Shown here: positions 17,197 through 32,997 of the stretch, in pieces | Layout of the letters: every line of letters starts with the position of its first letter | Position numbering within the stretch: the stretch's first letter is position 1 | Assembly: GCA_041666525.1 (NCBI GenBank) | Contig: JBAYGT010000001.1 | Location: 334,426-398,425 of the forward strand | Direction: 5' to 3' | Length of the DNA: 64,000 nucleotides | Source of the DNA: Negativicutes bacterium | GTDB lineage: Bacteria; Bacillota; Negativicutes; JBAXTZ01 | Position numbers and translations under genes: made by a program | The notes under the pieces: generated by a model | The model's input: the letters and a program-made list of their open reading frames with translations, nothing else | Told to the model about the DNA's origin: nothing | Databases searched by the model: none

Positions 17197-17223
17197 GTTC
17201 GACACAAACAGTTGTTTTCCTGC
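17197..17223 (-). promoter_or_regulatory. Sigma-H-type promoter (site A) upstream of the NUDIX / ECF-S / TudS-like genes
   Basis: The minus strand reads GCAGGAAAACAACTGTTTGTGTCGAAC, that is AGGAAAA, 14 nt, then GAAC. It contains TGTCGAA, which matches the Spo0A-box consensus TGNCGAA. Confidence 0.5.
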
Positions 17224-17253
17224 TCAAATCATAAATTAAGTTGTTTTTATAAA

Positions 17254-17296
17254 CAAAAAAACCTGCATATTTCGTATAAACCGAAACTTCTGCAGG
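17254..17296 (-). terminator. Rho-independent terminator after the tRNA-Ser pair
   Basis: Minus strand CCTGCAGAAGTTTCG-GTTTATA-CGAAATATGCAGG followed by TTTTTTTG. Confidence 0.6.
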
Positions 17297-17308
17297 CATT
17301 GATTTTAC

Positions 17309-17399
17309 TGGCGGAGTGGAGAGGATTTGAACCTCCGCCCCAGTTTCCCGGGCTAACGGTTTAGCAAACCGCCCTCTTGAGCCACTTGAGTACCACTCC
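17309..17399 (-). tRNA. tRNA-Ser (anticodon GCU)
   Basis: Reverse complement GGAGTGGTACTCAAGTGG...GCGGT-TTGCTAA-ACCGT, with a long variable arm, GGTTCAAATCC T-loop and ...CCACTCCGCCA. Cloverleaf with an encoded CCA. Confidence 0.9.
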
Positions 17400-17415
17400 G
17401 TTATTGAAAGTAATC

Positions 17416-17504
17416 TGGCGGAAGGGGTGGGATTCGAACCCACGGCCCCTTGCGGGGTCACTGGTTTTCAAGACCAGCTCCATAAACCGCTCGGACACCC
17501 TTCC
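17416..17504 (-). tRNA. tRNA-Ser (anticodon UGA)
   Basis: Reverse complement GGAAGGGTGTCCGAGCGG...CTGGT-CTTGAAA-ACCAG, with a long variable arm, GGTTCGAATCC T-loop and ...CCCTTCCGCCA. Confidence 0.9.
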
Positions 17505-17520: not shown

Positions 17521-17549
17521 ATTATATTAAAAGCTGTTCAACTTGTCAA
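17521..17549 (-). promoter_or_regulatory. Consensus sigma-A promoter for the tRNA-Ser genes
   Basis: Minus strand TTGACA, 17 nt, then TATAAT. The -10 ends about 16 nt upstream of the tRNA 5' end. Confidence 0.7.
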
Positions 17550-18294: not shown

Positions 18295-18903
18295 TTATAA
18301 TGTCGCAAGCACTGCCTTTAGCAAAAAATATCCCGCCATCATTAACATTACCAGCCGGGCGACGTTTTTGACCGCCGGATTGTTGAACAGTTTTGCAGAA
18401 ACGCCGAACAATGGTAAAAAATAAACACTCGTCCCAAGATAAAACCATAAAAAATATTCAACACCAGCTACCGCTGAAGCCTTGGAAAATACGACAATTA
18501 TCGCTGCAACAAGCGGCGGGCAAACAGCAATTCCAGTAAGCAGACCGAACAACAACGCCCCGCACCATGGTTTATAAACCCGTCCTAATTTTCCGCAAGG
18601 CTTGAACGTCGGAAAAGCGCCTAACAAACCACCAGTTAATAACGTCACGCCGATTAACCAGTTGGAAATTGCTGTCAGATTTTGAAACAAAGTCGCTTGC
18701 TCAGTTGCAACAAATGCACCGGCAAACCCGGCGACTGTTCCAACCGCTACATACGAAAACAAACGTCCTCCGAAAAATAACAGCAAGTGACCTGCAGTCC
18801 TTCGCCAACCAGTGTTTTCAGCAAATAAGAACGGCAACAGGTACATTCCGCAAGATAGCAAACAATACCATCCAGTTGACAAACCCAACAAGAATGCCTC
18901 CAT
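18295..18903 (-). CDS. DsbD_2/TauE-like polytopic membrane protein (cytochrome c biogenesis transmembrane-region family)
   Basis: 202 aa with about 6 TM helices and paired Cys residues in the first helix (WYCLLSCGMYLLP), resembling the HCxxMCGP motif of that family. Confidence 0.4.
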   Translation of the reverse strand: MEAFLLGLSTGWYCLLSCGMYLLPFLFAENTGWRRTAGHLLLFFGGRLFSYVAVGTVAGFAGAFVATEQATLFQNLTAISNWLIGVTLLTGGLLGAFPTFKPCGKLGRVYKPWCGALLFGLLTGIAVCPPLVAAIIVVFSKASAVAGVEYFLWFYLGTSVYFLPLFGVSAKLFNNPAVKNVARLVMLMMAGYFLLKAVLATL

Positions 18904-18904
18904 A

Positions 18905-19357
18905 TCAATGCCTGTTTTTCAATTTAACTCTGACCGCTACCGATTTGTCATCAAACAAATATACCCATTGCACATTTCCAGCATAACGATCGGTCGCCGT
19001 AAGTTTTGCGGTTAATTTAATCGTATCAACAATTATTCCAAAAACATAGCCGTCAATATTAATGTTCTCTTTTATCTCGGCCGGCAAGGTCGGCTGACCT
19101 TTTAAGCGAAATTGCACAAACCCTTCACGCGCATCGCCAAATACAGTCTTAAAAACCGGATGATTGACAGTAAGCTCATAACCTTTGCGTTGAACGGTAG
19201 TTGCCGGTTGGCCGCCGGAATACCAGGCAGTAGGATGAAGGCCGGTCATCAAAACAATTTTTTCCAGTTTATCCATACCGACAAATGAAAACACCATGAA
19301 CAAAATCGCTGCCACCGCAATCAAGTATGCGAAAAATGCTTTTATTTTTCCAAACAT
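18905..19357 (-). CDS. Hypothetical membrane-anchored protein
   Basis: N-terminal TM helix (AFFAYLIAVAAILFMVFSF) followed by a roughly 120-aa beta-rich domain. Start set to the ATG at 19357 (GAGGGGGA upstream), because the track start at 19375 is a TTG. I do not recognise a family. Confidence 0.45.
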   Translation of the reverse strand: MFGKIKAFFAYLIAVAAILFMVFSFVGMDKLEKIVLMTGLHPTAWYSGGQPATTVQRKGYELTVNHPVFKTVFGDAREGFVQFRLKGQPTLPAEIKENINIDGYVFGIIVDTIKLTAKLTATDRYAGNVQWVYLFDDKSVAVRVKLKNRH

Positions 19358-19367
19358 ACCATCCCCC

Positions 19368-20486
19368 TCAACCAAGAACCAGTTTGAAGATTACACCCAA
19401 ACTTTTTGCCAGCATCGTACCCAGCATCGCCACCATCAGTACATAAGCCGCATACATAAATAGTAACCGTGCCGCAACCGAACTGGCCGCACAGCCGGTT
19501 CCACGAATATGATAACTGATTGCCCGAGTCGGGCAACTATCGGCGCATTTACCACACTTGGCGCATTCAAGACGAATTTTTCCCGCCTGCAAACTTTCGT
19601 CATCAATCGCATGCAACGGACAAACCATAATACATTTTTTGCATTTAATGCATTTGTTCGTATCAATACTTACGCTGAAAATATTCACCCGGTTGGACAA
19701 CGCCAACAACGTCGGGCCAAGCGGGCAGAAAAACGAACACTGGGCACGTTTTTTCGATAAAAACGGCAAAACAGCAATGAAAATCACGAACATTGAAAAA
19801 AAGACCAACGCCTCGATCATATCCAGTGTCGTAGTCACCATCTTAAACTCGGTAACCGGTTTGAACGGACAGAGCCACTGGCAATATATCGGCGTCAATG
19901 TATAAGCCGAAACCAATGCGGTAAAAATCAAAATCGCCCAAGGCAACAACCGCCACAATTTATTCTCAAATCTGAACGACGGCTTCTTTTTGAGCTGCGC
20001 TACGCCCTCATCCCATCCGCCATAAAAACAGCCCCAGGCACACCAGCCACGACCAAGAACAATAACTGCGCAAATTAAAATCACGAGCATCGAGGCAATT
20101 GAGGCATACCCGCCGTACATATTGCCCGGGAAAGGAATTTCCTGTATTACTAATCCGGGAATAATCAACGCAGGTGATAATAAATGGCAAAACGGAACTT
20201 TGCACTCATAAACCGTAGACAGCGACAGCAACATGCTGCCACGTTCAATAATGTGTGAATAGATAAAACTCACCGGAAATAGAACTGCAGCCGAAATAAA
20301 TAACATCGCCCGATATTTCCAGGTTTTTCCAGTTCGCAACATCATAAAAAATAAGTAATTTACAAACAAAAACACCAAAAATGATGCCACCCCGTTATAT
20401 GTTTTGAAATTGCCGCCATGCAGCAAAAACATTGCCGAGATAAGCAATATCGGTAACTGTGCCAGCAATGATTTCCAGAGTTTCAT
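19368..20486 (-). CDS. NapH/MauN-like integral-membrane polyferredoxin (4Fe-4S binding protein)
   Basis: 372 aa with membrane CxxxCP motifs (WCAWGCFYG, CQWLCPFKP, CSFFCPLGP) and two ferredoxin motifs (CIKCKKCIMVCP, CAKCGKCADSCP). Confidence 0.7.
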   Translation of the reverse strand: MKLWKSLLAQLPILLISAMFLLHGGNFKTYNGVASFLVFLFVNYLFFMMLRTGKTWKYRAMLFISAAVLFPVSFIYSHIIERGSMLLSLSTVYECKVPFCHLLSPALIIPGLVIQEIPFPGNMYGGYASIASMLVILICAVIVLGRGWCAWGCFYGGWDEGVAQLKKKPSFRFENKLWRLLPWAILIFTALVSAYTLTPIYCQWLCPFKPVTEFKMVTTTLDMIEALVFFSMFVIFIAVLPFLSKKRAQCSFFCPLGPTLLALSNRVNIFSVSIDTNKCIKCKKCIMVCPLHAIDDESLQAGKIRLECAKCGKCADSCPTRAISYHIRGTGCAASSVAARLLFMYAAYVLMVAMLGTMLAKSLGVIFKLVLG

Positions 20487-20511: not shown

Positions 20512-21594
20512 TTATGAAAAAATCAGTGACTTGCCCAATCCGCCCTCGGCAAAATATTTTCCGTGCAATTCGCAGCACGAAAACTGCTGCGCAAGCGCAT
20601 CGATTAATCTAAATAACCGTGCAGCATTTTCTTTGCCGTTTTCCGTTGAAATAACAATACCGGCGGCAGCGTCACCAGCCGGCAATGTTACCGATGTCAT
20701 ATCGAGCATATTGGCAATCTTAACCAAATATTTTCCGCTTTTATTTTGAAGTGCGCGAGCCGCCGGGCCGGTTAATCCAAAAACCGAATCACCAAAGCCC
20801 AAGACATCAACCGGACCTTCAAAAGTCATAACTGTATCGAAGTCGTGCAATATTTTTTGCATCGCGGTAATTGAATGGCTACGATCAGCAAAATCCGGAA
20901 ATTCGATTTCGACGCACTTAACTCCAAGCGATTGGAGGCTCTCAATAACCGGCTGTAGACGGTCACACATATCTGAACCATCAGGAAGTATTATATTGGC
21001 TTTGGCTGGTACAGCAATTTTAATCGGTAACTTTGTTTCATTGTCATTAAGTTCTAATATAGACAACGCCGCGCAGATAACTTTCCACTCCCGCGCAATT
21101 ATTCCGACTGACGAAGAAAACGAGATTCCATCAGTTGATCGATTACATGAATTGCTTTTGTAGCCGCATCCGGCCAGTAACACACTAAACAAATTACACG
21201 CCAAAGCCGGCGCCAACACCGAGCCACCGCCATCAGTGCCAAGCGCAATATCATTAATTCCTAACAAAACATTAACTGCTGAACCGCTGGACGAGCCAGT
21301 CATCGGTCGCCCGGTGAGCGGATTGAGTAAATCAACATCAATCGCCCGTCCGCCGCTAGCCGATTTATCAAGCGTATGCCAGATAAAGCTTCCGCCACAT
21401 AACCGTTCAATCAAATCGCGCGGCATTACCGCGGTATCTTTCACGCCCAACAAATACGGACGCACCCCGCCTTCCAGAACTTTTGCTGCTAATTCCAGAG
21501 TTTGCGGGTTATTTGTGAGGACTGATTTTCTTGAATTTTTTTCTGCCTTCAGCGCTGCTTTGGCTATTTTTTCAAATATTTTTATTGAATTCAT
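20512..21594 (-). CDS. Amidase-signature family protein (compact, 360 aa)
   Basis: Contains GVKD (catalytic Lys context), GSSSGSAVNV and GTDGGGSVLAPA, which together form the Ser-cisSer-Lys amidase signature. Its start overlaps the yhfU-like stop (TAATG). Confidence 0.7.
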   Translation of the reverse strand: MNSIKIFEKIAKAALKAEKNSRKSVLTNNPQTLELAAKVLEGGVRPYLLGVKDTAVMPRDLIERLCGGSFIWHTLDKSASGGRAIDVDLLNPLTGRPMTGSSSGSAVNVLLGINDIALGTDGGGSVLAPALACNLFSVLLAGCGYKSNSCNRSTDGISFSSSVGIIAREWKVICAALSILELNDNETKLPIKIAVPAKANIILPDGSDMCDRLQPVIESLQSLGVKCVEIEFPDFADRSHSITAMQKILHDFDTVMTFEGPVDVLGFGDSVFGLTGPAARALQNKSGKYLVKIANMLDMTSVTLPAGDAAAGIVISTENGKENAARLFRLIDALAQQFSCCELHGKYFAEGGLGKSLIFS

Positions 21595-21956
21595 TATCCG
21601 TTCACAATTTTATTAATAATAATCGGCAGCACTTTATCGGTGTGTTCAGCGGTAAATCCAAACGCTTTTTTTCCTGCTGTCACTTCGGCAATAATCTGCT
21701 CGTCCGACTTTATACTTCCCGGCATCGAAACTGTTACGCACTGCCCCATACCCAGCAACGCAATCGCCATCGCCAAAGCGCCACCGCCGCCGGTATTGCA
21801 GGCACCGACATAATAATCGGCCTGCCCGGTTTTGATCAGCATCGCAGCTTCAATATCGCTCTTTATTTCAACAGATACTTTATCGCCGCCCAACTCCTTG
21901 ACTTTATTAGCAATCTCCTGCTTGTTCATTTGGCCGCCTATTACAAATTTAATCAT
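21594..21956 (-). CDS. yhfU: DUF2620 protein (E. coli YhfU-like)
   Basis: 120 aa. The segment GQADYYVGACNTGGGGALAMAIALLG parallels E. coli YhfU GQLDYYIGACNTGAGAALSIAIAVIG. Confidence 0.8.
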   Translation of the reverse strand: MIKFVIGGQMNKQEIANKVKELGGDKVSVEIKSDIEAAMLIKTGQADYYVGACNTGGGGALAMAIALLGMGQCVTVSMPGSIKSDEQIIAEVTAGKKAFGFTAEHTDKVLPIIINKIVNG

Positions 21957-21983
21957 TTAATCCTCCAATATTTTTTTGCAATA

Positions 21984-22535
21984 TCAATTATATCTTATTT
22001 TGTTAACAACATCCCAAGTCAATTTTACCCGCACATCACACAGCTTATAAAGTTCCTCGTGCGGAGGATTGGTACTACCGTAAATAAGCGTTACGTGTAC
22101 TCCTTCATCTTTGGCAATCTGCACCGACGGAATCATGTCACTGTCACCGGTCAAGATTACTGCATGAGTAATTTTCCCCTTCATCGCCAACTTCGCCAGA
22201 TCCAGCGCAAATAATACATCCACGCGTTTTTGCATATAGATCGGTTTATTTTTGGCGCTGTAGCCACGACGTTCCAGCCGACCAAGACAAACGGAAAAGT
22301 TCGATAATTCGCTCAATCCGGCGACAAACTCATCAAATTTTTGCGTAAGCTTATCGCTCTGCGGGGAATGGTCATTATATGGCGGGCAGTGGTAATAACA
22401 GGTGCGCAGAACATTTTTACCATCCGCCATATAGTTTGCCAATTTAGCATAATCAATCGGCACATTACCAAATTCATCCTTAACCACCGCATCAAGATAA
22501 CCGCCATCGATAAAGCTCGCTACTTGTAAATCCAT
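21984..22535 (-). CDS. NYN-domain (LabA/DUF88-like) predicted ribonuclease
   Basis: 183 aa with the conserved acidic motifs FIDGGY, RVDVLFALD and LTGDSDMIP. Confidence 0.7.
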   Translation of the reverse strand: MDLQVASFIDGGYLDAVVKDEFGNVPIDYAKLANYMADGKNVLRTCYYHCPPYNDHSPQSDKLTQKFDEFVAGLSELSNFSVCLGRLERRGYSAKNKPIYMQKRVDVLFALDLAKLAMKGKITHAVILTGDSDMIPSVQIAKDEGVHVTLIYGSTNPPHEELYKLCDVRVKLTWDVVNKIRYN

Positions 22536-22545
22536 TCTGTCTCCT

Positions 22546-23841
22546 TCACTTCACCGCTGGCGCAAATAAATGCAGCCAGGCCAGAATATTAACAATAATT
22601 CCGGTTGCAATCGCGGCGATCGGCCCGACTGCCATTTTTATCAGCGGCCGCTTGGAAACTTCGTTTAAGCAATAAGCTCCGGCAACAATTAGAAACCCCA
22701 TCCCCGGAAACATTTTATTTGCCGCCATCATTGAACCGACCAGCAATGCCAACTCCAACACTTTAGTCATCGCGGCACGCATATTGTCGGCTGATTTTTT
22801 TAAACCAGGAAAACGGTCAAAAACATTAGCAAACAACACTAAACTGGAAGCCTCCAACACAATAACTATTGCTCCGGTAATAGCAGCTACCAACAAATTA
22901 GGCGACAACAATCCGGCGGTAACAACAAAACCAAAGCCATCAGTTACCCAAACCCCGGTTGCCAAACTAGTCATCCCTTTTAGGGGAATATAAGAAAAAC
23001 CGCTGATTACTGACAAATTTACTGCATCCGTCATCTGATTTTTCGCCAACGCCAATAGCGTCAAGTTCGAACCAACTAACAAATGAATATGTGCTGCCAT
23101 ACCATAGACCGCACCAACCAGCGCAATATACGGCAAATTCTTTTTGATGTTTTTTACCCGGTCACCAAACAACGACGCCATATTTATTGATACTGTGTTT
23201 TTTTCTTGCATCGCAAAAAATAATAACATCACGAATCCCGCGAGCAACGCACATCCGTCAGCACTACTATACCAAGCGCTGATTGCAATCAGTTGCCGAA
23301 CCACCACGGTAACCATCAGCGCGGCGGCGCCTTTTTTGAAACCGTATTCCATGGCAATTGCCAGCGCCGGAAACGCAGCAAAGGCAAATAGCACCGGATC
23401 GCCCAAAATGCTCAATCCATCAAAAACATTGACCGGTAACTGCTGCATGGCATCAACAAACCACTGCAATCCTGCAAGCAAACCGATGCCGTAAATTCCG
23501 CCGGCCACGGCAGCGCCCGCAAATCCCAAAGTGTTTTTGCGATCCGTGTACCATTTTTTGTCCCAGTCTGCCGGAAAAAACACACCGATAATATCCGTAC
23601 CCAGCCACAGACAATGTACTAAAATAATCGGCGACATCAATGAAAACGGAATACCAAACCCGATTATCAAACCAAAACTTAACGCAAAAGTCGTCGCCGC
23701 CAATTCGGCTCGGCTCATCCGTTTTTCACGATACTCCGGCATAATCGGACGCACCGCATCATTAAAAACCGCAATGCCGCGGTTAGCTAACACCGCTCCA
23801 AGCGCACCGGCTAAAAACATCAAAGTATATTTTAACAGCAT
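22546..23841 (-). CDS. yhfT: YhfT-like polytopic membrane (putative transport) protein, paralog 2
   Basis: The N-terminus LANRGIAVFNDAVRPIMPEY matches the YhfT family and the paralog at 28435-29727. Start set to the ATG at 23841 (GGAG upstream). Overlaps the yhfW-like stop within ATGCTGTTAA. Confidence 0.8.
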   Translation of the reverse strand: MLLKYTLMFLAGALGAVLANRGIAVFNDAVRPIMPEYREKRMSRAELAATTFALSFGLIIGFGIPFSLMSPIILVHCLWLGTDIIGVFFPADWDKKWYTDRKNTLGFAGAAVAGGIYGIGLLAGLQWFVDAMQQLPVNVFDGLSILGDPVLFAFAAFPALAIAMEYGFKKGAAALMVTVVVRQLIAISAWYSSADGCALLAGFVMLLFFAMQEKNTVSINMASLFGDRVKNIKKNLPYIALVGAVYGMAAHIHLLVGSNLTLLALAKNQMTDAVNLSVISGFSYIPLKGMTSLATGVWVTDGFGFVVTAGLLSPNLLVAAITGAIVIVLEASSLVLFANVFDRFPGLKKSADNMRAAMTKVLELALLVGSMMAANKMFPGMGFLIVAGAYCLNEVSKRPLIKMAVGPIAAIATGIIVNILAWLHLFAPAVK

Positions 23842-25073
23842 AAAATCTCCTTCAAAAACGACTCCCCGTTCTCGCATTTTGTTGTGTCAAAAAAACTGCA
23901 CACCGTTTGGCCAATATCAGACAAAGTTTTTCGCTCGCCGATGAAACCAGCACGAACTTTCTTGCCAAATACCAGCAACGGCGTATTTTCTCGGGTGTGT
24001 TGACTGTGACCGATGGTCGGATCGTTGCCATGATCAGCAGTCACCAATAAAACATCGTCCTCATTAAGCAAAGCTATGATTTTTTTGATATAAATATCAC
24101 TGATTAGCAGTTTTTCAGCATAAATTTTCGCCGATTGCAAATGTCCGGCAATATCGGTTTCCTGGACATTGATGCAGACAAAAGCGTTTTCACTGTTCTT
24201 AATGCATTGCAGCGCTTGCTCCAATGTTTCGGCGGTATCAACTACCGAATAACTCTCTCCGTCCGGATTCTCCACAATATCGGCTACCTTGCCGACCAAT
24301 ATCGTTTTTACGCCAACAGCAGCAAGCTGTTTGGGGACTTGCACCGCCGCGTTTATCCCATAACCCAGATGCTGCACTAAATAGCCGGTATCATATACGC
24401 CGGAAAGCGGCGCGTTGATACCAATGTAATTCTCTTCTTTGATTTCCGCAGCAGCAAGTATCGCTGACGGTTCAACAGCTTCACCGCCAAAAGCAATCAC
24501 TCGTGATACATCGGCAATTTCACGAACTATTTTTCCAATTGCCAATACTTCTGCAAATGTAATTTTATCAAATGTTGCGGTAATATTATAGGCGCTACCG
24601 CAATCGGCCTCGATATTATCGGCGATTGTAACACAGCCATTCACCAGCAGATATTTCAACTGTTCACCAATAATATCTACCTGATATCCCGATTTAATCA
24701 ACATTTCGCGAACTCTCGGCAAAATTTCGGAAAACGGCCGCTTATGCGGTTTTTTCGGCAGCGTTCCCATTATTTCCTGATGTCCATAAAACGTATCCGC
24801 ACCAAAATGCATCAGCGCACTTTTACCCCAACAGACATCGCTTTGCTTTCGCAAATATGGCACATCTACACCAACAGCATTGGCAAGCCCTAGCGCTTCC
24901 AAGTTCGGCAACCGGAGTTCAGGAATTTCCTCAAAGATATGTAAGCAAGTATGGGCAGCAACATCTTGCGGCCGAACCAGCGCTGCGTCAACTGTTGCAC
25001 CGATACCATAACCATCAAGAATTAAAACGATGAAACGCTTTCGTATTTCCAAATCTGAAATCTGTTTCGACAC
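23832..25073 (-). CDS. yhfW: YhfW-like phosphopentomutase/alkaline-phosphatase-superfamily metalloenzyme
   Basis: 413 aa with a GTG start and RBS AAGGAG. Has LDGYGIG near the N-terminus and TADHGNDPT near the C-terminus, both typical of phosphopentomutase-type metalloenzymes. Confidence 0.75.
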   Translation of the reverse strand: MSKQISDLEIRKRFIVLILDGYGIGATVDAALVRPQDVAAHTCLHIFEEIPELRLPNLEALGLANAVGVDVPYLRKQSDVCWGKSALMHFGADTFYGHQEIMGTLPKKPHKRPFSEILPRVREMLIKSGYQVDIIGEQLKYLLVNGCVTIADNIEADCGSAYNITATFDKITFAEVLAIGKIVREIADVSRVIAFGGEAVEPSAILAAAEIKEENYIGINAPLSGVYDTGYLVQHLGYGINAAVQVPKQLAAVGVKTILVGKVADIVENPDGESYSVVDTAETLEQALQCIKNSENAFVCINVQETDIAGHLQSAKIYAEKLLISDIYIKKIIALLNEDDVLLVTADHGNDPTIGHSQHTRENTPLLVFGKKVRAGFIGERKTLSDIGQTVCSFFDTTKCENGESFLKEILCC

Positions 25074-25116
25074 TCTATCTCCTTTGAAACTTTGCGACTA
25101 CAAAGCTTTGTTGCTA

Positions 25117-26268
25117 TTATCGCAACCATCGTCCTTGTGCATCATATACGCCAATGATCCGTGGCGCACCTGACTGAATTCCTTCAACAACTGCAACTTC
25201 GCTACGGGTAACAAAAACCTGCGTGCGAAAACAAAACACTATCGGAGTACCGACGCTACACCGTCCGTCAAGCGGAAAATAATAGTCTATCGAACCATCA
25301 TCAATTTTCCCTGTACCGATAACTTCATACTCGCCATCCGATTTTTTGGCAATAGCATTACACATATTGGACCGGCGGTAATAACCACCGCCATAACATA
25401 GCGATCGCCCGAGATAATTGTGTGATACTTCACTTATATATAGCATGGCAATGCGTTCCGGTTGTGCACCGGTTGCGTGCAACGGCGTTGTTCCTGTAAG
25501 CGCGTGCCCCGGTTCGCCATGGGTACTGCCGCACTCTTTGAGTAATGGCATCGCCGCAATACAAGTAGCCGAAGGAGTGTTGATTTGGTTTATGGCAACA
25601 CCATTCCTGCGCAAAACATACGCTGCTGTTTTTAATGTATCCATATTGTTCGTAGCCTTGATTTTTTCATCGCTAAATAGAAAACAGGGAAAAGCAGTAA
25701 TCCCTTCTACAACAACGTTGCTCAACGCGTTTATCTGTTCAGCGACTGTTGTCGCGATAGTCAGTGGCAGACCGCCTTCTTGTCCCGGATAAATTACATC
25801 ACCGGTCTCGATAATTTTCAACAATAACTTTTGCGTCATTCCCAATTTTTTGGCTACTAAATTAACTTGCTCTGCCATATCCAGCGAATAGACGGTCAGC
25901 ACTTCCGGTCTGTGCATAAGAATTCTTTCCAATACTGTAAACGGCGTTTGTACCAGATGACCGACATGGCCAAGCCGTACGCCATTTTCCGCAAGCGTCA
26001 ATGCCTCGCGCCAATCAACAGCAACAGCGCCGCAATAACCTAATTCATCCAGCTTGCGGGCAATATCGGGATTACGTCCGAATTGCTTAGTCATGTAATA
26101 CAATGAAATAGCAAATTTGTCCGCTTCATCCTTTATCAATCGCGCGTTTTCCAGCAACATATCTAAATCAATAAGATATGTATCCGGTTGCAACTCGCCT
26201 GTAGCGTATAAATCAAATGCTGCCTCAATAAATCGCGGATTGTTTTTTCGCAAAGCTTCTATAAACAT
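25117..26268 (-). CDS. yhfX: YhfX-like alanine-racemase-fold (fold-type III PLP) protein
   Basis: 383 aa. Resembles E. coli YhfX in length and in position within the cluster. Has an N-terminal TIM-barrel-like region with a conserved Lys context (YYMTKQFGRNP). Confidence 0.65.
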   Translation of the reverse strand: MFIEALRKNNPRFIEAAFDLYATGELQPDTYLIDLDMLLENARLIKDEADKFAISLYYMTKQFGRNPDIARKLDELGYCGAVAVDWREALTLAENGVRLGHVGHLVQTPFTVLERILMHRPEVLTVYSLDMAEQVNLVAKKLGMTQKLLLKIIETGDVIYPGQEGGLPLTIATTVAEQINALSNVVVEGITAFPCFLFSDEKIKATNNMDTLKTAAYVLRRNGVAINQINTPSATCIAAMPLLKECGSTHGEPGHALTGTTPLHATGAQPERIAMLYISEVSHNYLGRSLCYGGGYYRRSNMCNAIAKKSDGEYEVIGTGKIDDGSIDYYFPLDGRCSVGTPIVFCFRTQVFVTRSEVAVVEGIQSGAPRIIGVYDAQGRWLR

Positions 26269-26301
26269 AACCTCTCCATTGAACCATCTTTGCCTGACTA
26301 C

Positions 26302-27390
26302 TTATATATCAATTTGAATCGCCTGTGCCAAAATTCTTAACACAGTATCTGCTCCGCTCCGCATCGGATTAATCCTGATCAACCGGCTGTCAGCATCGGG
26401 AATACTGGCGCGAAAGGTACCGGACACGCGGTAAAACATCGGTGTGATTTCATAACGTGACTCAGCGCCAACCGGATGGGGCGCCGCCCCTAGTTTTTCG
26501 GCATTTTCTATAACTGAGGGCGCATTTGGCTCGGAAAGTTCAACAATTATCACTCGAGATTGCGCATTTGCAATAAAAGCCCGTTTGACACCGCGCACCT
26601 CACCAGCATTCAACCGTCGGATCACTTCTGTACCGACTTCGGCCTGAATTGCCAACGCGACCGGCGTGTAAACCAGACTGCGTAATGCATCCATAGCTTC
26701 ATGGCCCTGTACCTGTCCGCCACCGGAATAATTCGCTTTAGTTATTCTTTCGATATAACATCGTTTTCCAAGAACACAACCAATTCCTTCCGGACCAAGT
26801 AATTTAAACAACGAGAACGCCGACAAATCAGCGCCACACTGTACGCCAATTTTGTCAGTCTTCATTACCACATAGTTGTCGTCGGTAATTATCGGAATAT
26901 TTTTCCCGGCAATAATTGCAATCACGTCAGCGATTGTATAATGATCGTCGATTTTTTGCCGTGAATATTGTATCAGCGCACAATCTGCAGAAACAGCACC
27001 AAGCGTTTTAATTAAAGTTGATTCGCTATTATAATCCGATACGATTGTTTTTAGCGCCATACTTTCAACTATTGTTTTGGTAGTCGGGTATATAGGTGCA
27101 TCGTGTAACAATATCGAACCATTTGGTTTCACCAAGCTCCACAAACCCCAACGAATTGCCGCCGTACCGGCGCCACGCACTAATACACAGGCTTCGCAAT
27201 CAAAAAAATCCGCCAATACCGCTTCAACTTTTGCAGTATAAGACGGTTTGTTAAATCCGCTAACCAACCCGACGTCGCCACAGCTCAAAAACTCCGCGCC
27301 CCCGAAATGCGCGGTGATTTTGTCCACCAGTTTAAACTGCAATCGCATGGCTTGATCTATAGTCAACGGAACAAGTGGAAATGTCTGCAT
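26302..27390 (-). CDS. yhfS: YhfS-like fold-type I PLP-dependent enzyme
   Basis: 362 aa. MQTFPL...LVRGAGTAAIRWGL...DDNYVVMK...FKLLGPEGIG...PVGAESRYEI...FYRVSGTF is closely colinear with E. coli YhfS. Confidence 0.8.
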   Translation of the reverse strand: MQTFPLVPLTIDQAMRLQFKLVDKITAHFGGAEFLSCGDVGLVSGFNKPSYTAKVEAVLADFFDCEACVLVRGAGTAAIRWGLWSLVKPNGSILLHDAPIYPTTKTIVESMALKTIVSDYNSESTLIKTLGAVSADCALIQYSRQKIDDHYTIADVIAIIAGKNIPIITDDNYVVMKTDKIGVQCGADLSAFSLFKLLGPEGIGCVLGKRCYIERITKANYSGGGQVQGHEAMDALRSLVYTPVALAIQAEVGTEVIRRLNAGEVRGVKRAFIANAQSRVIIVELSEPNAPSVIENAEKLGAAPHPVGAESRYEITPMFYRVSGTFRASIPDADSRLIRINPMRSGADTVLRILAQAIQIDI

Positions 27391-27429
27391 AATTCAACTC
27401 CAAATTGAAACTAAATTTGAGCTATTATT

Positions 27430-28413
27430 TTAGGACAACAGCCGGTTGGGATTGTCAATCAGCATCGTATCAATATCTTTTTGTACAATTTCTGCTGCTA
27501 ATAGCATCGGAACAAAAGTGCCTAACAAATAACCATATCCAATTCCGCCATTAACTGTAAAATGTGACTTTCGGGTAATATCTAACGACATAATCACCTG
27601 ATTACTAAAGCCTCGCTGGCATATTTCTTTTAGAAATTCTACACGCTTGCTGTCTGGCAAATATTTGTTTTTGCCAATGGTGTCAAAGCCAAGCGTAACT
27701 CCTCTATCCAACATTTTCATAACATATTCCAAATCGCCACACAAATCAGCGTGGCCGATAACGATCCGATCTCGCTCGACACCAAGACTTGTCAGCAAAT
27801 CAATCTGCTCAAGCCCTAGTTTTCCAAGTGTAGTATGCGTCGAAATTGTCGCGCCATTTTCGCAATGCGCTCGCGCCGCTGCGCGAAATACTTTGGTTTC
27901 AAAAACAGTGATATAATCGGCCCCGGAGCCGATCTCGCCGATGATTTGAGCTTTGTATTCAGTGTCGTCAATTCCTACTTCGAGTTCCTTACGCATTTGT
28001 GCGGCTAGCTGCTTTTCGCTCAGCCGATACACATCCACCGGAAAAAACGGCTCTTTGTAATAGCCGGTTGCTAAAACAACATTCATACCCGTTTCTTTTA
28101 CAACCCGTTCAATATAGGACACATTACGCCCCATGCCGCTGTTGGTCAAATCCACAATGCGTTGTACCCCTTGGTTCTTCAATCGGACAAACTCAACTAC
28201 TGTATCAAGAAAACAATTCAGACAACAATCATCGTCGTGCTTAACCCCCGACAAATCAACTGTAACGTGTTCATGCATAAGGGTTATCCCGCTGAACGCA
28301 AGTTTTGAATTTTTAATTTTCAATTCCGAATTATCCGAAGATAACTTAACTGTTTTACTTTTTGACAATTTTCTATTTCCTGGCAACTTTTTCTCCTTTG
28401 CGATTCTCTGCAA
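27430..28413 (-). CDS. php: Phosphotriesterase-homology protein (Php/YhfV, amidohydrolase superfamily)
   Basis: HEH metal motif (LMHEHVTVDLSG), plus GEIGSG, STHT, IGHADL, FDTIGK and SLDITRKSH, colinear with E. coli Php. The start is uncertain: TTG at 28413, or TTG at 28386 preceded by AAGGAG. Confidence 0.85.
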   Translation of the reverse strand: MQRIAKEKKLPGNRKLSKSKTVKLSSDNSELKIKNSKLAFSGITLMHEHVTVDLSGVKHDDDCCLNCFLDTVVEFVRLKNQGVQRIVDLTNSGMGRNVSYIERVVKETGMNVVLATGYYKEPFFPVDVYRLSEKQLAAQMRKELEVGIDDTEYKAQIIGEIGSGADYITVFETKVFRAAARAHCENGATISTHTTLGKLGLEQIDLLTSLGVERDRIVIGHADLCGDLEYVMKMLDRGVTLGFDTIGKNKYLPDSKRVEFLKEICQRGFSNQVIMSLDITRKSHFTVNGGIGYGYLLGTFVPMLLAAEIVQKDIDTMLIDNPNRLLS

Positions 28414-28434
28414 TCAGAGTACTCGACTGTTTGA

Positions 28435-29727
28435 TTACTTGACGACCGGCGGCAAATATAACCCCAGCCAATATAGCACATTAATAAGTATTCCAGTGAA
28501 AATCGCACCCACCGGCCCAACTGCCATTTCGACTAACGGTTTCTTGGTAGTTTTGTTTAACACATATATTCCCACTACAACAAATAACCCCAACCCTGGT
28601 GCCATGTTATGCGCCGCCAGCATCCCGCCAACCAACAACGCCACTTCTAAAACTTTGGTCATCGAAGTTCGGATATTGTCGCCGCACTTTCTCATCCCGG
28701 GGAATTTATCCAACATTTTCGCCGCCAGGTTTAGCAACATGATTTCCGCAAACATAATCAAGGCGCCAACAAAAAAAGCAATAAACGGATTTTTAATCAG
28801 AAATCCGGCTACAAAAATAAACGTCATTCCTATCGGACTATACACCCCGGTAGTAATCGCCGTAGTTGCAAGCAGCGGAATGAAACCTAACCCACGAGCG
28901 AAAGCAGTCATCGCAGCTTCGGTAGTTTTTCCACTAGCAGCTAAATTAAGCGAAATCGGATCACCGGCAATCATTAAATATGAGGTGGCGGCTGTAGCCA
29001 AACCACCAGTAAACGACAGCACCAGCGCATTTTTGCGAATTCGTTTCATCCGTTCACTGAAAATTGATGCTAAATCAATTTGCATTGCATTCGGATCAGA
29101 TTTTTCACGCAATGCAAAAAACAACATGATTATCATCCCGGCAAGCAGTGCCATTCCTTCCGGATCAATACTTAACTTAGCACCGGCAATGTTGAATTTT
29201 CCGTAATATACGAACCATTGCCGCACCATAAATGAAGCGACAAAGGTCATAATACCTTTCTTTATTCCATATTGCAGCGCCACCACCAACGCCGGAAACG
29301 CCGCAAAAGAAACAATTATTGGCGTGCCAACCATCCCCATGCTCGGCAGAAAATTTATCGGCAGCAACTTAAATGCCGTAACGACAAATTGCAAACCAAT
29401 AACGATACCAACTCCATACAACGCACCAAACACTAGCGCCAGCAATGAACCGCTTTTGCCTTTTGGTGACCAGGTTCCAATGATATCGGTTCCAAGTAAA
29501 ATACTATGCACTAAAATTACCGAAGCTGCTAGCGATACCGGTATTCCAAAACCGATTACTAACCCAAAACTTAGCGCAAAACTGGTTGCCGCCAAAGCTT
29601 TTTTATCCATGCGGCCTTCAATATATTCTGGCATAATCGGCCGTAATCCGTCATGAAACACTGCAATACCGCGTTGCGCCAGCAACGCCGACGTAGCACC
29701 TAATAAAGCAATGAAGATATAGTTCAT
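28435..29727 (-). CDS. yhfT: YhfT-like polytopic membrane (putative transport) protein, paralog 1
   Basis: 430 aa. LAQRGIAVFHDGLRPIMPEYIEGRM... and the C-terminal ILINVLYWLGLY are colinear with E. coli YhfT. RBS GGAGG. Confidence 0.85.
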   Translation of the reverse strand: MNYIFIALLGATSALLAQRGIAVFHDGLRPIMPEYIEGRMDKKALAATSFALSFGLVIGFGIPVSLAASVILVHSILLGTDIIGTWSPKGKSGSLLALVFGALYGVGIVIGLQFVVTAFKLLPINFLPSMGMVGTPIIVSFAAFPALVVALQYGIKKGIMTFVASFMVRQWFVYYGKFNIAGAKLSIDPEGMALLAGMIIMLFFALREKSDPNAMQIDLASIFSERMKRIRKNALVLSFTGGLATAATSYLMIAGDPISLNLAASGKTTEAAMTAFARGLGFIPLLATTAITTGVYSPIGMTFIFVAGFLIKNPFIAFFVGALIMFAEIMLLNLAAKMLDKFPGMRKCGDNIRTSMTKVLEVALLVGGMLAAHNMAPGLGLFVVVGIYVLNKTTKKPLVEMAVGPVGAIFTGILINVLYWLGLYLPPVVK

Positions 29728-29763
29728 AGTTCCTCCGTTAATAAAGCTTTATGATGACAACTC

Positions 29764-30117
29764 TCATTCAAAATATTTATTCAAATGCAAAAATATATAG
29801 CCCTGTTCTGAATCTGGTAAGTTAATTTCAAATAGTTTTTCGATTTCTGCCATAGCCAGGAGGCTTTTAGAAAATGCGGCTGACTGCTCAATTTCAGTAA
29901 TAATTATTCTGTCTAGCGCCTGCAAATTCTCGCTTTCACGCACGCGCTTTAACGTCATGGCAAAGTGAGTAATAAACATACCGGCATTTTCTTCAGTAAG
30001 TTCAATTTGCCACAACTCTGCAAACATTGCTAACATTTCTGTCAATTTGGCTGCTTCAGTCGAAGTTATTTGTTCGGTATCGGCCAAAAGTTTAATTCTG
30101 AACGGTAAATCAATCAT
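29764..30117 (-). CDS. yhfY: PRD-domain-only protein (YhfY-like)
   Basis: About 117 aa and all-helical. Size and position match E. coli YhfY. Start set to the ATG at 30117, because the track start at 30123 is the GTG of the GAGGTG RBS. Confidence 0.6.
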   Translation of the reverse strand: MIDLPFRIKLLADTEQITSTEAAKLTEMLAMFAELWQIELTEENAGMFITHFAMTLKRVRESENLQALDRIIITEIEQSAAFSKSLLAMAEIEKLFEINLPDSEQGYIFLHLNKYFE

Positions 30118-30148
30118 GAACACCTCGCATAAAATTCACTCAGGTATT

Positions 30149-30176
30149 ATTCGTTATAAACTAAGATTTTTCCTGC
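30149..30176 (-). promoter_or_regulatory. Sigma-H-type promoter (site E) immediately upstream of the php-like operon
   Basis: The minus strand reads GCAGGAAAAATCTTAGTTTATAACGAAT, that is AGGAAAA, 15 nt, then GAAT. The -35 element overlaps the last codons and stop of the Kv channel gene. Confidence 0.5.
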
Positions 30177-30958
30177 AAATAATGTTGTATTTCTTCACTT
30201 TTGTTTTCTTGCTGCGCATTGCGCTTTAGCGCAATCAACACTGAATACATAGCATCGATATCGTTGATAGACAGTGACTCAAATTTTCCTAAATCCGTGA
30301 TAATTTGATTCACCGTTTCACCCGCAAAGCTTTTTTTATTTTTGTGACGCAGCAAAAAGCTGGCTACATTTGCAGTTAAAGCACTGATTAAACCAATTCC
30401 AATAAACATCAGTACCACAGCAACAATCCTGCCTTCACCCGATTTTGGCGAAAGATCACCGTAGCCGACTGTAGTAATCGTAACGAATGACCACCAGAGC
30501 GCATCTTCTAAAGACATATTTTCGAAACGGGAAATGATTACTGTGCCGATTGTCATTAACATTATTGTCAAAATAAACAGGTAATGAAAGTCGTTTTTCA
30601 GAGCAAGTGTGCTAAATTGTTTAAGCGAATTAGAAAAACGCGATACTACCCTGAGCAAATAAACGACACGCAGTATCCGCAATGTCCGTAATCCCGGCAT
30701 GAAAGCTCCGAATGGAATGATTGATATCAAGTCAATCGGATTTCCAGTAATAAATTTTCTTCGATTGTCGGATAAATACAATCTGACAAAATAATCTATA
30801 ACGAAAACTACCCATATGGCCCAATCAATTGCCTTGACCACGTTTATTTCTGCTTCGCTAAGCGTGCCTTCCTTTGCCAGCACAACGTTCATCAATACAA
30901 TAGCAGCCAGTATCGGAATAACGATATTATAAATTGTAACCAGTCGATTTTTATTCAT
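30161..30958 (-). CDS. Voltage-gated-type potassium channel (6TM, Kv-like)
   Basis: S4-like segment LRTLRILRVVYLLRVVSRF and selectivity filter TTVGYGD. Confidence 0.8.
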   Translation of the reverse strand: MNKNRLVTIYNIVIPILAAIVLMNVVLAKEGTLSEAEINVVKAIDWAIWVVFVIDYFVRLYLSDNRRKFITGNPIDLISIIPFGAFMPGLRTLRILRVVYLLRVVSRFSNSLKQFSTLALKNDFHYLFILTIMLMTIGTVIISRFENMSLEDALWWSFVTITTVGYGDLSPKSGEGRIVAVVLMFIGIGLISALTANVASFLLRHKNKKSFAGETVNQIITDLGKFESLSINDIDAMYSVLIALKRNAQQENKSEEIQHYLQEKS

Positions 30959-31000: not shown

Positions 31001-32362
31001 TTACTTTGTAATTTTTTCTTTCACCCAATAACCAATATACAGCAAAGCTACTGCAGCTAATCCAGAAATCAGGGTTACTTGTTGATTGGGATCAAAATAC
31101 AGCGCGCCGATTACCACAAAATTAAAAATAACCGATAAAACCGGCACCACTGGATAAAAAGGTGTGCGGTATTCCAAATCAGCGACTTTTTCGCCATTTT
31201 TTGCCAATTCACGTCTAAACGAAAAATGACAAAGTGAAATAATTATCCAGACCAACGATCCAGAAATCCCCGTACAAGCCATTAGCCAAATATACACCGT
31301 ACCCGCCGCATATTTTTGGGTGAGTAGTGACAACGCTGCAACTGCCAGCGTTAAAAACATTCCCATATATGGCACACCACGGCTGTTTACTTTAGCAAAA
31401 AACTTTGGTGCCATACCCTCGTTGGCCATTGACCATAATAATCGCGAGCAAGCATAAAGCGCGCCATTATTGGCAGATAACGCCGAAGTCAAAACCACAA
31501 ATGACATCAAAGAATAAGCAATCGGCAAACCGGCCATACTGAACACAACCGCAAATGGGCTTTCCAACACTCCCGCGTCTTTCCAAGGCACGATGGCTGC
31601 CAGCGCCGCAACAGACAAAATATAAAACAAAATTATTCTAACACCGACACCATTAATTACGCGTGGTACATTTTTCCCAGGATTTTCGCATTCTCCGGCA
31701 GCAATACCAATCAACTCTGCACCTTGAAATGAATAAACTACCGCAATCATCGTAAGAAATACTGCGGAAAAACCGTTAGGAAACAAGCCATCTGCCACAA
31801 AGTTTTTCCAGCCAACAATCGAGCTGCTGCTTGGCACTACGCCAAAAATCATCAATGCGCCGATGATTACAAAGCAAACTATCGCAATTACTTTTATCCC
31901 GGCAAACCAAAATTCGGTTTCACCATAGGCTTTGGCCGAAATCATATTGATAAATGCCAGCACTATTGCAAATATTGCGCACCATATCCAGACGGGTATC
32001 GATGGCAAAAATGAATTCATTATTATTCCAGCTGCTGTAAAACCGGCGGTAGCCGCTAACGCCCAATTCAGCCAATACATCCAGCCGCAAACGAAACCAG
32101 TTCCCGGACTCAGATATTTTACAGCGTACTGATAAAAAGAACCGGTAACAGGTTCCTTAACCGCCATTTCGGCCAAACTTAACAGCACCATGAACATAAC
32201 CAAACCGCCAAATGCAAAAGCAATTATTGCTCCCAGCGGACCGGCAGCTCCAATTGTAGCTCCGGCGCCCAGAAACAATCCAGTGCCAATGGTACCGCCG
32301 ATGCTGATCATCATAATGTGCCGTGACTTCATGCTGCGTTTTAATTCTTTTCCCTGAGCCAT
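31001..32362 (-). CDS. Amino acid permease (APC superfamily, AAT family)
   Basis: The MAQGKELKRSMKSRHIMMISIGGTIGTGLF signature. Start set to the ATG at 32362 (GGAGG upstream); the 19-aa N-terminal extension in the track is unlikely to be real. Confidence 0.85.
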   Translation of the reverse strand: MAQGKELKRSMKSRHIMMISIGGTIGTGLFLGAGATIGAAGPLGAIIAFAFGGLVMFMVLLSLAEMAVKEPVTGSFYQYAVKYLSPGTGFVCGWMYWLNWALAATAGFTAAGIIMNSFLPSIPVWIWCAIFAIVLAFINMISAKAYGETEFWFAGIKVIAIVCFVIIGALMIFGVVPSSSSIVGWKNFVADGLFPNGFSAVFLTMIAVVYSFQGAELIGIAAGECENPGKNVPRVINGVGVRIILFYILSVAALAAIVPWKDAGVLESPFAVVFSMAGLPIAYSLMSFVVLTSALSANNGALYACSRLLWSMANEGMAPKFFAKVNSRGVPYMGMFLTLAVAALSLLTQKYAAGTVYIWLMACTGISGSLVWIIISLCHFSFRRELAKNGEKVADLEYRTPFYPVVPVLSVIFNFVVIGALYFDPNQQVTLISGLAAVALLYIGYWVKEKITK

Positions 32363-32422: not shown

Positions 32423-32920
32423 CTAATTTTCCTCCGAAGGCTTTCGTTTCATGCTGGTTTTTATTTTTTTAGTTTCTTTTTTGATATACTTTGCCAGCTT
32501 TCCACCTGCCTCTTTTACTCGGCGACCGGTAGCAACGCGGGTACGTGACTTTGGCTTCATGTCTTTCTGTTCACCAAAATCACCGCGTTTAAGATTGGTA
32601 ATTTTAATTTTCTCCGGCTTAAACGCCTTTCGCAACAAATTTCGCACCGGTGTTAAATCAGCGTTTTCTGTAGCGGTATAGATATCGATTGCCGCAAATT
32701 TTAGTTCACTATAAGAATGAATGCTAACATATACGCAACCCAATGTTGCCAACACATGGGTGCACTCACCGTTACTAAACGATTTGGCCTTAAACTCCTC
32801 ATTATTCATTAGCGCTGCAACGGACTCAACTGCCGCTATCAACTCTTTCTCATTGCCTAAATCAATATTTTTGCAATTATACAAATCCATCACTAAGTGA
32901 CGAGCTATCGGTGTTTTCAT
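32423..32920 (-). CDS. S-adenosylmethionine-decarboxylase-fold (SpeH-like) protein lacking the pyruvoyl-forming Ser, with a Lys/Arg-rich C-terminal tail
   Basis: ARHLVMDLYNC and VSIHSYSELKFAAIDIYT align with class 1 AdoMetDC ([35 protein letters not shown]). The ES cleavage dipeptide is CV here (TGC GTA at 32732-32737). Start at the ATG at 32920 (GGGAGG upstream). Confidence 0.6.
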   Translation of the reverse strand: MKTPIARHLVMDLYNCKNIDLGNEKELIAAVESVAALMNNEEFKAKSFSNGECTHVLATLGCVYVSIHSYSELKFAAIDIYTATENADLTPVRNLLRKAFKPEKIKITNLKRGDFGEQKDMKPKSRTRVATGRRVKEAGGKLAKYIKKETKKIKTSMKRKPSEEN

Positions 32921-32949
32921 AATGCCTCCCAATTGAACTTAATGCAGTA

Positions 32950-32978
32950 ATTATAACAGATGTGTCTACATTATCCAA
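32950..32978 (-). promoter_or_regulatory. Sigma-A-type promoter for the AdoMetDC-like/permease unit
   Basis: Minus strand TTGGAT, 17 nt, then TATAAT. Confidence 0.45.
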
Positions 32979-32997
32979 ACGACGGCACTGAATAACT

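Follow-up and report, generated by a model that had tools for sequence, protein, structure and literature searches.

The genome of a Negativicutes bacterium raises the question of whether an unusual block of genes is a new system or a new form of an old one, and of what compound it might process. The block lies on the minus strand of a 64,000-nucleotide stretch, hereafter called the window (NCBI GenBank assembly GCA_041666525.1, contig JBAYGT010000001.1, positions 334,426 to 398,425; coordinates given without a locus label are those of the window), and comprises ten genes that share seven protein families with the Escherichia coli K-12 cluster yhfZ-yhfY-yhfX-yhfW-php-yhfU-yhfT-yhfS (b3376-b3383). 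We consider it nearly certain that the block belongs to the yhf/php cluster family, of which it is a lineage-specific rearrangement, and we use its relatives in other genomes to consider what the module may do.

Results

Membership in the yhf/php family

An initial annotation had read ten open reading frames (ORFs) from the minus strand, and all of them are present where it placed them, in an ORF region of 20512-30123. Its family assignments hold for every one, since Pfam and NCBIfam profile searches agree on them, including the placements in the YhfS, YhfT, YhfU, YhfW, YhfX and YhfY families and a probable one in that of Php. Read along the minus strand, the genes are as follows (PLP, pyridoxal phosphate; the cut-off of Pfam YhfT, PF10797, is 26 bits).

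29764..30117, minus strand: PRD-only protein (YhfY-like), first of the block; Pfam PRD, E = 4.7e-10; ATG at 30117 behind GAGGTG
28435..29727, minus strand: YhfT1, polytopic membrane protein, presumed permease; Pfam YhfT, E = 4e-173, 577 bits
27430..28386 (alternative start 28413), minus strand: Php, PTE-family binuclear-metal hydrolase; Pfam PTE, E = 2.6e-80
26302..27390, minus strand: YhfS-like fold-type I PLP enzyme; Pfam YhfS-like_C, E = 5.7e-43, 146 bits
25117..26268, minus strand: YhfX-like alanine-racemase-fold PLP enzyme; YhfX-like_C, E = 9.5e-33, 113 bits; Ala_racemase_N, E = 3.4e-15
23832..25073, minus strand: YhfW-like phosphopentomutase-superfamily enzyme; Pfam Metalloenzyme, E = 2.9e-34; NCBIfam PRK12383, 553 bits (cut-off 254)
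22546..23841 (alternative start 23877), minus strand: YhfT2, deeply divergent second YhfT paralog; Pfam YhfT, E = 1.3e-133, 447 bits
21984..22535, minus strand: NYN/LabA-like nuclease-domain protein; Pfam NYN, E = 1.1e-12, 49 bits (cut-off 24)
21594..21956, minus strand: DUF2620 (YhfU-like), RpiB-like alpha/beta protein; Pfam DUF2620, E = 8.3e-46, 155 bits (cut-off 25)
20512..21594, minus strand: short amidase-signature enzyme, 360 aa; Pfam Amidase, E = 1.4e-9

The proposed orthology to yhfS, yhfT, yhfU, php, yhfW and yhfX is supported by BLAST identities of 36-53% for six proteins, with YhfT1 at 38%, DUF2620/YhfU at 40%, Php at 47% and the YhfS, YhfX and YhfW proteins at 45-53% (YhfS, 53%). 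The PRD protein gave no BLAST match to E. coli YhfY at E <= 1e-3, and it matches the PRD protein of the Geosporobacter cluster with 30% identity (E = 1e-16). Like the window block, the E. coli K-12 cluster lies on one strand and is tightly packed; unlike it, the window block is without YhfZ, has a second, divergent YhfT, a NYN gene and an amidase, and runs in the order Y-T1-php-S-X-W-T2-NYN-U-amidase, so that the different gene order reported earlier is real. The earlier statement that no function has been assigned to the cluster also agrees with what we found: full-text literature searches returned no functional study and no published pathway, the RefSeq annotation of E. coli K-12 (September 2026 copy) labels all eight yhf/php genes putative or uncharacterised, and the Protein Data Bank (PDB) entries 4j8l and 4kbx bear the names "Uncharacterized protein YhfS" and "Uncharacterized protein YhfX".

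The cluster in other genomes

A scan with a YhfT alignment over one genome per species gave 565 relatives. In the best 80 loci ORFs were called and compared with reference proteins by BLAST; all counts rest on the 69 loci that are not cut by contig ends. Because the loci were ranked by similarity to YhfT1, the sample leans to Bacillota, Thermotogae and Fusobacteria. YhfS is present in 69/69 loci, YhfX in 68/69, Php, DUF2620 and YhfZ in 67/69 each, PRD in 64/69 and the short amidase in 50/69, and the same seven to nine families thus co-occur in at least 69 genomes from several phyla. The usual order is YhfZ-PRD-DUF2620-YhfT-(amidase)-Php-YhfS-YhfX-YhfW, with DUF2620 nearly always adjoining YhfT; Enterococcus and Vagococcus have DUF2620-YhfT-Php-YhfS-YhfZ-PRD-YhfX-YhfW-amidase.

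These counts alter the standing of the amidase, which had been taken for an addition to the E. coli gene set. Its presence in 50 of the complete loci, usually between YhfT and Php or after YhfW, makes it a regular member of the cluster, and E. coli K-12 is one of the examined loci that are without it. We saw the gene directly in the yhf clusters of Thermoanaerobacterium, Geosporobacter and Oceanotoga. The canonical cluster of Bacillota, Thermotogae and Fusobacteria, as found in Thermoanaerobacterium thermosaccharolyticum (CP002171), Geosporobacter ferrireducens (CP017269) and Oceanotoga teriensis, consists of the same families as the window block, including the short amidase (39-46% identical to that of the window; YhfT1, 55-72%), whereas it has one YhfT, no NYN gene and, optionally, nagB, HPr or Enzyme I at its end.

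Several accessory genes are built into the cluster in relatives. (i) A bona fide nagB (297-317 bits; cut-off 236.9) abuts or overlaps the YhfW stop in 10/69 loci, which span Clostridia, Negativicutes and Thermotogae. (ii) HPr, of the phosphotransferase system (PTS), lies directly 3' of the cluster in 6/69 loci, and HPr together with Enzyme I lies within the operon in two Thermotogae metagenome-assembled genomes (MAGs; 2/69: L031, 17824-20887, and L038, 14340-15983). The continuations of these two operons hold no recognisable Enzyme II (EII) gene, and that of L031 also runs into an aldose 1-epimerase and a NUDIX gene. (iii) A PBP4B-like serine hydrolase (PF00144) stands in or next to the cluster in 9/69 loci, at three different insertion positions across taxa; its sites include L026/L027 (8194-9930), L080 (12192-13421), L086 (3159-4538) and L088 (4122-5501), and its hosts are Clostridium paraputrificum-group, Streptobacillus and Carnobacteriaceae/Streptococcus MAGs. 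The E. coli gene for PBP4B (yfeW) is located in the murQP operon for N-acetylmuramic acid (MurNAc). No HPr or Enzyme I linkage was found in the window, and a kinase gene could be recognised neither in the block nor in the core that its relatives conserve.

Features peculiar to the window lineage

The window block has lost YhfZ, carries a second, divergent YhfT and a NYN gene, and has its own gene order; it shares these features only with a few uncultured Bacillota, represented by a MAG contig (JBAXTZ010000003; L011) and by metagenome contigs from the European Nucleotide Archive (L097/L098). L011 holds all ten genes, arranged as in the window, with YhfT1 97%, NYN 91% and the amidase 72% identical to those of the window, between flanks of unrelated housekeeping genes. 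L097/L098 likewise keep all ten genes in order (NYN, 74%; amidase, 56%), and in L097 a permease gene lies directly 5' of the PRD gene and a SIMPL gene directly 3' of the amidase. The order is therefore kept in three different genomic contexts, and because the ten-gene block is the only unit common to all three, it qualifies as a conserved unit. Relative to the usual order, DUF2620 and the amidase are displaced to the end of the block.

The absence of YhfZ, a regulator of the GntR type, holds for the whole 64-kb window, in which a tblastn search found no YhfZ homolog; the sole weak match is a membrane protein resembling the major facilitator superfamily (MFS). The reported duplication of the permease is likewise borne out. 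YhfT2 is 43% identical to YhfT1, does not exceed 49% identity with any other YhfT of the sample, and shares 86-95% identity with its counterparts in L097 and L011; since it is so divergent elsewhere yet so alike among the three lineages, it is an old, constrained paralog. The ten-gene variant looks rare, because a metagenome scan with YhfT2 gave just one further fragment, of 1 kb. L011 is also the only one of the 69 complete loci with two YhfT genes. Outside the window lineage, Clostridium swellfunianum has two YhfT-family proteins encoded on the same 4.7-Mb chromosome (P0154 and P0246; 70% and 66% identical to YhfT1), so that YhfT duplication also occurs elsewhere; this pair probably represents two clusters.

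The description of the NYN gene as an extra one is correct, as L011 alone among the complete loci (1/69) carries it, all yhf-linked copies fall in the window lineage (L011, L097/L098 and the window's own contigs), and its relatives from elsewhere have unrelated gene neighbourhoods. As judged from its sequence, the predicted NYN nuclease gene is a lineage-specific insertion whose putative catalytic residues are intact: a comparison of 12 relatives shows no change at D10, D15, D106 and D131-S-D133. A recent horizontal origin was rejected, since its overall GC content and its GC content at third codon positions resemble those of neighbouring genes. A role in a defence system was likewise rejected, PADLOC having given just generic weak matches.

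Active sites and predicted folds

All enzyme genes of the block keep their predicted catalytic motifs. The best PDB matches of Php are those of E. coli Php, 4lef (6.5e-83) and 1bf6 (7.1e-83), and alignment with 4lef shows that the HxH, EIG, THT, GH and D motifs, which supply the binuclear-metal ligands, are kept. Php scores 335 bits against the NCBIfam equivalog NF007373, under the cut-off of 486 bits. Among the curated NCBIfam families other than its own, the one nearest to it is a phospho-furanose lactonase model, whose cut-off it falls far short of. In YhfW, the DT and DHGNDP motifs of Bacillus cereus phosphopentomutase (Thr nucleophile and metal ligands) are kept, and residues 120-255, the substrate-binding cap region, remain unaligned with that enzyme. 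The YhfS-like and YhfX-like proteins match 4j8l (2e-118) and 4kbx (5e-108), respectively. The amidase belongs to a family with 897 relatives at E <= 1e-5, of about 360-380 aa, and its K52 (GVKD), S101-S103 (GSSS) and S125 (DGGGS), invariant in a 25-sequence alignment, make up a predicted Lys-Ser-Ser triad. At 360 aa it compares with about 450 aa for the full-length amidase-signature fold; its Pfam match covers profile positions 126-280 of 445, and its alignment with GatA (2df4) spans the amidase signature. The PRD protein is a single PRD domain of 117 aa in which H51, R58 and E104 are invariant across the window protein and 73 yhf-cluster PRD proteins, including YhfY, and H111 is found in 69/74.

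DUF2620 is a small family, with 140 representatives at 50% identity among 1.8 billion proteins. Its AlphaFold2 (AF2) model (pLDDT, 97.8) has RpiB structures as its top 8 PDB matches and as most of the strongest ones in a Foldseek search, with template-modelling (TM) scores of 0.57-0.68 and probabilities of 0.99-1.0, followed by flavodoxins and receiver domains. In a profile alignment, for which sequence alone gives weak support (hhalign E = 0.0054, probability 6.7%), Cys53-x-Thr55-Gly aligns with RpiB Cys66-Gly-Thr68, and Cys53, placed after the third strand, is nearly invariant across the whole family; Cys66 and Thr68 of RpiB are the catalytic base and the proton-shuttle residue, respectively. 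Compared with RpiB/LacAB isomerases, DUF2620 is about 30 residues shorter and only 12-19% identical, and nothing in the alignment corresponds to Asp9/His10, His99 or the C-terminal arginines of RpiB. With these other active-site residues unmatched, an isomerase activity of YhfU is no more than plausible.

Some apparent fusions involve DUF2620, namely PTE-DUF2620 (P0281, 413 aa), DUF2620-PRD (P0321, 267 aa), a partial DUF2620-YhfT (P0302) and a PRD-DUF2620 ORF in a Tissierellia MAG (L079, 1277-1927); these could be real Rosetta-stone fusions or artefacts of frameshifts or gene calling.

YhfT1 is 65-72% identical to Clostridium YhfT. Its AF2 model (pLDDT, 84; pTM, the predicted TM score, 0.82) has no significant fold match in the PDB, EIIC proteins included (best E = 0.058, TM = 0.24), and a PTS EIIC or other known transporter was dropped as an identity for it.

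Gene starts, junctions and limits of the block

Both overlapping junctions described earlier are present, the 10-nt overlap of the YhfW stop and YhfT2 start (ATGCTGTTAA) and the 1-nt overlap of the DUF2620 stop and amidase start (TAATG). YhfT2 probably starts at the overlapping ATG at 23841, and the PRD gene most likely at its ATG, 30117. The Php start is probably the TTG at 28386, giving 318 aa; it has an AAGGAG-N6-TTG site and is the start picked by gene callers on two identical contigs. Of the gap range reported as 10-43 nt, the lower end stands; the largest gap is 48 nt, because Php is placed at this TTG.

The upper end of the block had been put at 30176, already inside the stop region of the preceding gene, which encodes a K+ channel. 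That gene ends 44 nt before the PRD gene, and at the other end, 25 nt past the amidase stop, begins a 4Fe-4S membrane-protein gene that has a GGAGG site to itself. A scan of the window for sigma-70 consensus promoters and terminators, compared with shuffled sequence, found neither at either end of the block, and the counts in the window were not above those in shuffled sequence; the nearest convincing signals lie outside the block, with a promoter-like site at 32977-32950, upstream of an AdoMet_dc-like gene, and the hairpin described below, at 32410-32381. As for the single, translationally coupled ten-gene unit that had been proposed, the tight packing and overlaps on which it rested are confirmed and the transcription signals do not delimit it; "ten-gene operon" is a functional delimitation, for which the comparison between genomes is a better guide than the signals.

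Neighbouring genes

The genes that flank the block provide context only.

30161..30958, minus strand: K+ channel gene, between the amino-acid permease and PRD genes; Pfam Ion_trans_2
18295..20486, minus strand: 4Fe-4S membrane protein, 156-aa ORF (no Pfam match) and DsbD_2 protein; Pfam

The K+ channel gene is absent at the matching position of L097, and the downstream trio is absent both there and from L011; because the flanks of L097 differ in this way, the channel gene and the trio count as insertions or deletions relative to L097. The three downstream genes overlap or abut one another, look like a small redox or membrane module of their own and are probably co-transcribed with the block. 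Upstream lie genes for an APC amino-acid permease (31001-32362), a 169-aa AdoMet_dc-like protein of the pyruvoyl decarboxylase family and a LarA-like protein of the lactate racemase family (both within 32423-34251), followed by that for a 638-aa secreted clostripain-family (Peptidase_C11) protein (34311-36227). The LarA-like, AdoMet_dc-like and permease genes stand upstream of the block in the window and in L097 (1-2522), and they were rejected as members of the unit, as neighbours only, since they are absent from L011. The SIMPL gene was rejected as a partner, as a coincidence: it adjoins the cluster in Geosporobacter as well as in the window lineage, and a profile search of the other loci did not recover it.

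In the 60-nt gap between the AdoMet_dc-like and permease genes, a strong 12-bp hairpin with a T-run (32410-32381, minus strand) lies directly before the ribosome-binding site and ATG (about 32362) of the permease. In L097, a terminator and then a ribosome-binding site directly precede PRD, and in L011 a hairpin lies about 50 nt before PRD; such hairpins could bring about partial termination or attenuation within the co-directional gene arrays of this lineage. Downstream of the SIMPL gene are two tRNA-Ser genes (anticodons GCT and TGA; 17309-17504, minus strand), preceded by a perfect TTGACA-17-TATAAT match (17521-17549, minus strand), and a 107-aa ORF that overlaps them (17138-17461) is probably spurious.

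Discussion

The initial annotation suggested that the cluster degrades a phosphorylated and/or N-acylated amino compound. That proposal is reasonable, and the accessory genes of relatives together with the RpiB-like fold of DUF2620 narrow it to a compound of the amino-sugar type. We see an even chance that the module catabolises an N-substituted amino sugar or amino-sugar conjugate in a manner linked to the PTS and PRD. Several lines of evidence point in this direction: (i) sugar phosphates are indicated by the likeness of DUF2620 to RpiB, by phosphopentomutase as the nearest relative of YhfW, by the lactonase-model similarity of Php, by nagB and by the aldose 1-epimerase of L031; (ii) an amide or peptide bond is indicated by the amidase and by the PBP4B-like hydrolase; and (iii) a link to the PTS is indicated by the lack of a recognised kinase gene and by the HPr and Enzyme I genes of relatives. 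Any one specific substrate is highly unlikely to be the right one, and this applies to each of those that we reasoned out, namely muramic delta-lactam, muropeptide fragments, Heyns-type glucosamine-amino-acid adducts and aminoacyl-sugars.

A possible route can be outlined as follows. YhfT1 and YhfT2 would import the compound or compounds, derived for example from the cell wall or from glycation, and the amidase-signature enzyme would strip an N-linked acyl or aminoacyl group or open a lactam. Php may then hydrolyse a lactone, ester or amide of the phosphorylated sugar, YhfX (racemase fold) and YhfS (fold-type I) may carry out PLP-dependent epimerisation, deamination or elimination at the amino-bearing carbon, YhfW may shift the phosphate group, and YhfU, with its RpiB-like fold and Cys-x-Thr motif, may interconvert aldose and ketose forms. 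The product would enter central metabolism as a sugar phosphate, in nagB-bearing relatives via glucosamine-6-phosphate. The PRD-only protein, through its invariant His, would couple the system to phosphorylation by HPr and the PTS, and YhfZ, its putative DNA-binding partner, would have been lost in the window lineage. In the most speculative step, the NYN protein may target the operon mRNA; that it does so in place of the lost YhfZ is a conjecture that we regard as doubtful.

A number of points weigh against this reading. The order of the pathway is conjecture, and the source of the phosphate for the mutase is unexplained. nagB, HPr and the PBP4B-like gene each occur in just 9-15% of the sampled loci and none of them in the window, and Proteobacteria are barely represented among the 80 loci. 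YhfT resembles no solved transporter, its transport role being read from membrane topology alone. DUF2620 is without the other catalytic and phosphate-binding residues of RpiB, has no match to Pfam LacAB_rpiB and may not be an isomerase. Nothing ties NYN to the RNA of the yhf operon, and no sequence signal marks the ten genes as one transcript or excludes the flanking genes.

The PTS-related evidence can also be read as a new PTS-like group translocation, in which Enzyme I and HPr phosphorylate the YhfU cysteine, YhfU phosphorylates the substrate during import by YhfT, and the PRD protein senses the phosphorylation state. This would account for a phosphomutase without a kinase, and it would suit the missing kinase gene, the HPr genes found directly downstream, the HPr and Enzyme I pairs without a recognised EII, the invariant PRD histidine, the near-invariant Cys53 of DUF2620, the almost constant adjacency of DUF2620 and YhfT, and the DUF2620-PRD and DUF2620-YhfT fusions. 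The fusions, however, are single cluster representatives and possibly gene-calling artefacts, no EIIA-like gene was found in the analysis, and the YhfT model is unlike a solved EIIC or any transporter. EIIB proteins carry their active-site cysteine in an N-terminal loop, whereas that of DUF2620 sits at the position of the RpiB catalytic base, and the best folds for DUF2620 are RpiB, with no PTS EIIB in the top 50. We therefore rejected DUF2620 as an EIIB and retain group translocation solely as a minority explanation, an unlikely one. We think it similarly improbable that the substrate is not a sugar at all, and that the amidase and Php would instead hydrolyse an amide, lactam or small peptide that contains a D-amino acid (for example, part of a stem peptide of peptidoglycan, or the lactam of an omega-amino acid), whose products the PLP enzymes process. 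The intact amidase triad in most clusters, the PF00144 gene of DD-peptidase or D-aminopeptidase type in nine loci and two PLP enzymes, one of the alanine racemase fold, all fit such a substrate, as do the nylon-oligomer enzymes NylA and NylB, which belong to the same two hydrolase families. What it leaves unexplained is the universally conserved phosphopentomutase-type enzyme, the RpiB-like protein, the aldose epimerase, the PTS link and nagB at the end of ten operons.

Another question is whether the ten genes are one unit, or whether two modules (PRD-T1-Php-S-X-W and T2-NYN-U-amidase) have been juxtaposed or the block is part of a longer read-through array, with NYN as a passenger. The ends without a promoter or terminator, the flanking genes spaced as tightly as the internal ones, the absence of NYN relatives from yhf clusters elsewhere and the longer spacers of L011 around NYN and before the amidase (78-408 nt) all favour such a division. 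Against it stand the ten-gene order, kept with NYN 74-93% identical in three genomic contexts, and the YhfW/YhfT2 and DUF2620/amidase overlaps; moreover, the second half cannot work as an unrelated module, because DUF2620 is core and the amidase frequent in the canonical cluster. We thus judge a division of the block very unlikely. Taking the phosphotriesterase name literally, finally, would make the cluster one for the detoxification or use of organophosphates or phosphonates, for which the PTE family of Php and a weak similarity of YhfW to the phosphonate-pathway model PhpG (E = 5e-5) can be cited. The organophosphate hydrolase model, however, is matched with 82 bits against a cut-off of 500, the accessory nagB, HPr and aldose epimerase point to sugars and, to our knowledge, E. 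coli Php has no phosphotriesterase activity; this possibility is extremely improbable.

Two kinds of known systems offer comparisons for the amino-sugar-conjugate route. In amino-sugar PTS operons (nagE-nagBA, murQP-yfeW and the Salmonella dga operon for D-glucosaminate), an amino sugar, once phosphorylated, loses its acyl and amino groups to yield a central sugar phosphate. The yhf clusters of relatives likewise include nagB and a gene resembling that for PBP4B (YfeW), whereas NagA, MurQ, DgaE/F and recognisable EII components are absent. The other is the orphan cluster EF_0829-EF_0839/AHA_3910, which encodes, by its TIGRFAM descriptions, a PRD-only protein, a Gly-rich SFCGS protein, DUF4310/4311 membrane proteins, an amidohydrolase, a SelA-like PLP enzyme and a KDPG-type (2-keto-3-deoxy-6-phosphogluconate) aldolase. 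It parallels yhf in architecture, as both combine membrane proteins and a PRD-only protein with a small alpha/beta protein rich in Cys and Gly, an amidohydrolase-superfamily enzyme and a PLP enzyme, although its membrane proteins and enzymes are of other families. DUF2620 weakly matches Gly_rich_SFCGS (E = 0.0013) and TIGR03577 (E = 0.0078), and our literature search found no characterisation of that cluster.

To conclude, the cluster itself has long been known and is present in E. coli K-12, and the window adds a rare rearranged variant, unusual only for its additional permease, the RNase-like gene that it encloses and the regulator that it lacks. Within E. coli K-12 the yhf/php genes count among the longer-standing orphans, with crystal structures for three of the proteins, and the leads obtained here concern the whole family: outside the enterobacterial version, the short amidase belongs to the core partners, YhfU resembles a cut-down RpiB, YhfT has a fold without a PDB match, and some genomes have nagB, HPr, Enzyme I and a PBP4B-like hydrolase incorporated into the operon. 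In combination, these leads narrow the search for the substrate to N-substituted amino sugars with involvement of the PTS. It is decidedly unlikely that everything comes together in a hitherto unrecognised PTS-dependent amino-sugar-conjugate route with a YhfT fold absent from the PDB and a miniature RpiB-like YhfU, in which a NYN ribonuclease encoded inside the operon has taken over from transcriptional control by YhfZ and tunes the polycistronic mRNA, while a second, specialised YhfT widens or changes the substrate range. A NYN gene within a catabolic operon that is without its transcription factor is in any case a small, unusual instance and a candidate for post-transcriptional control.

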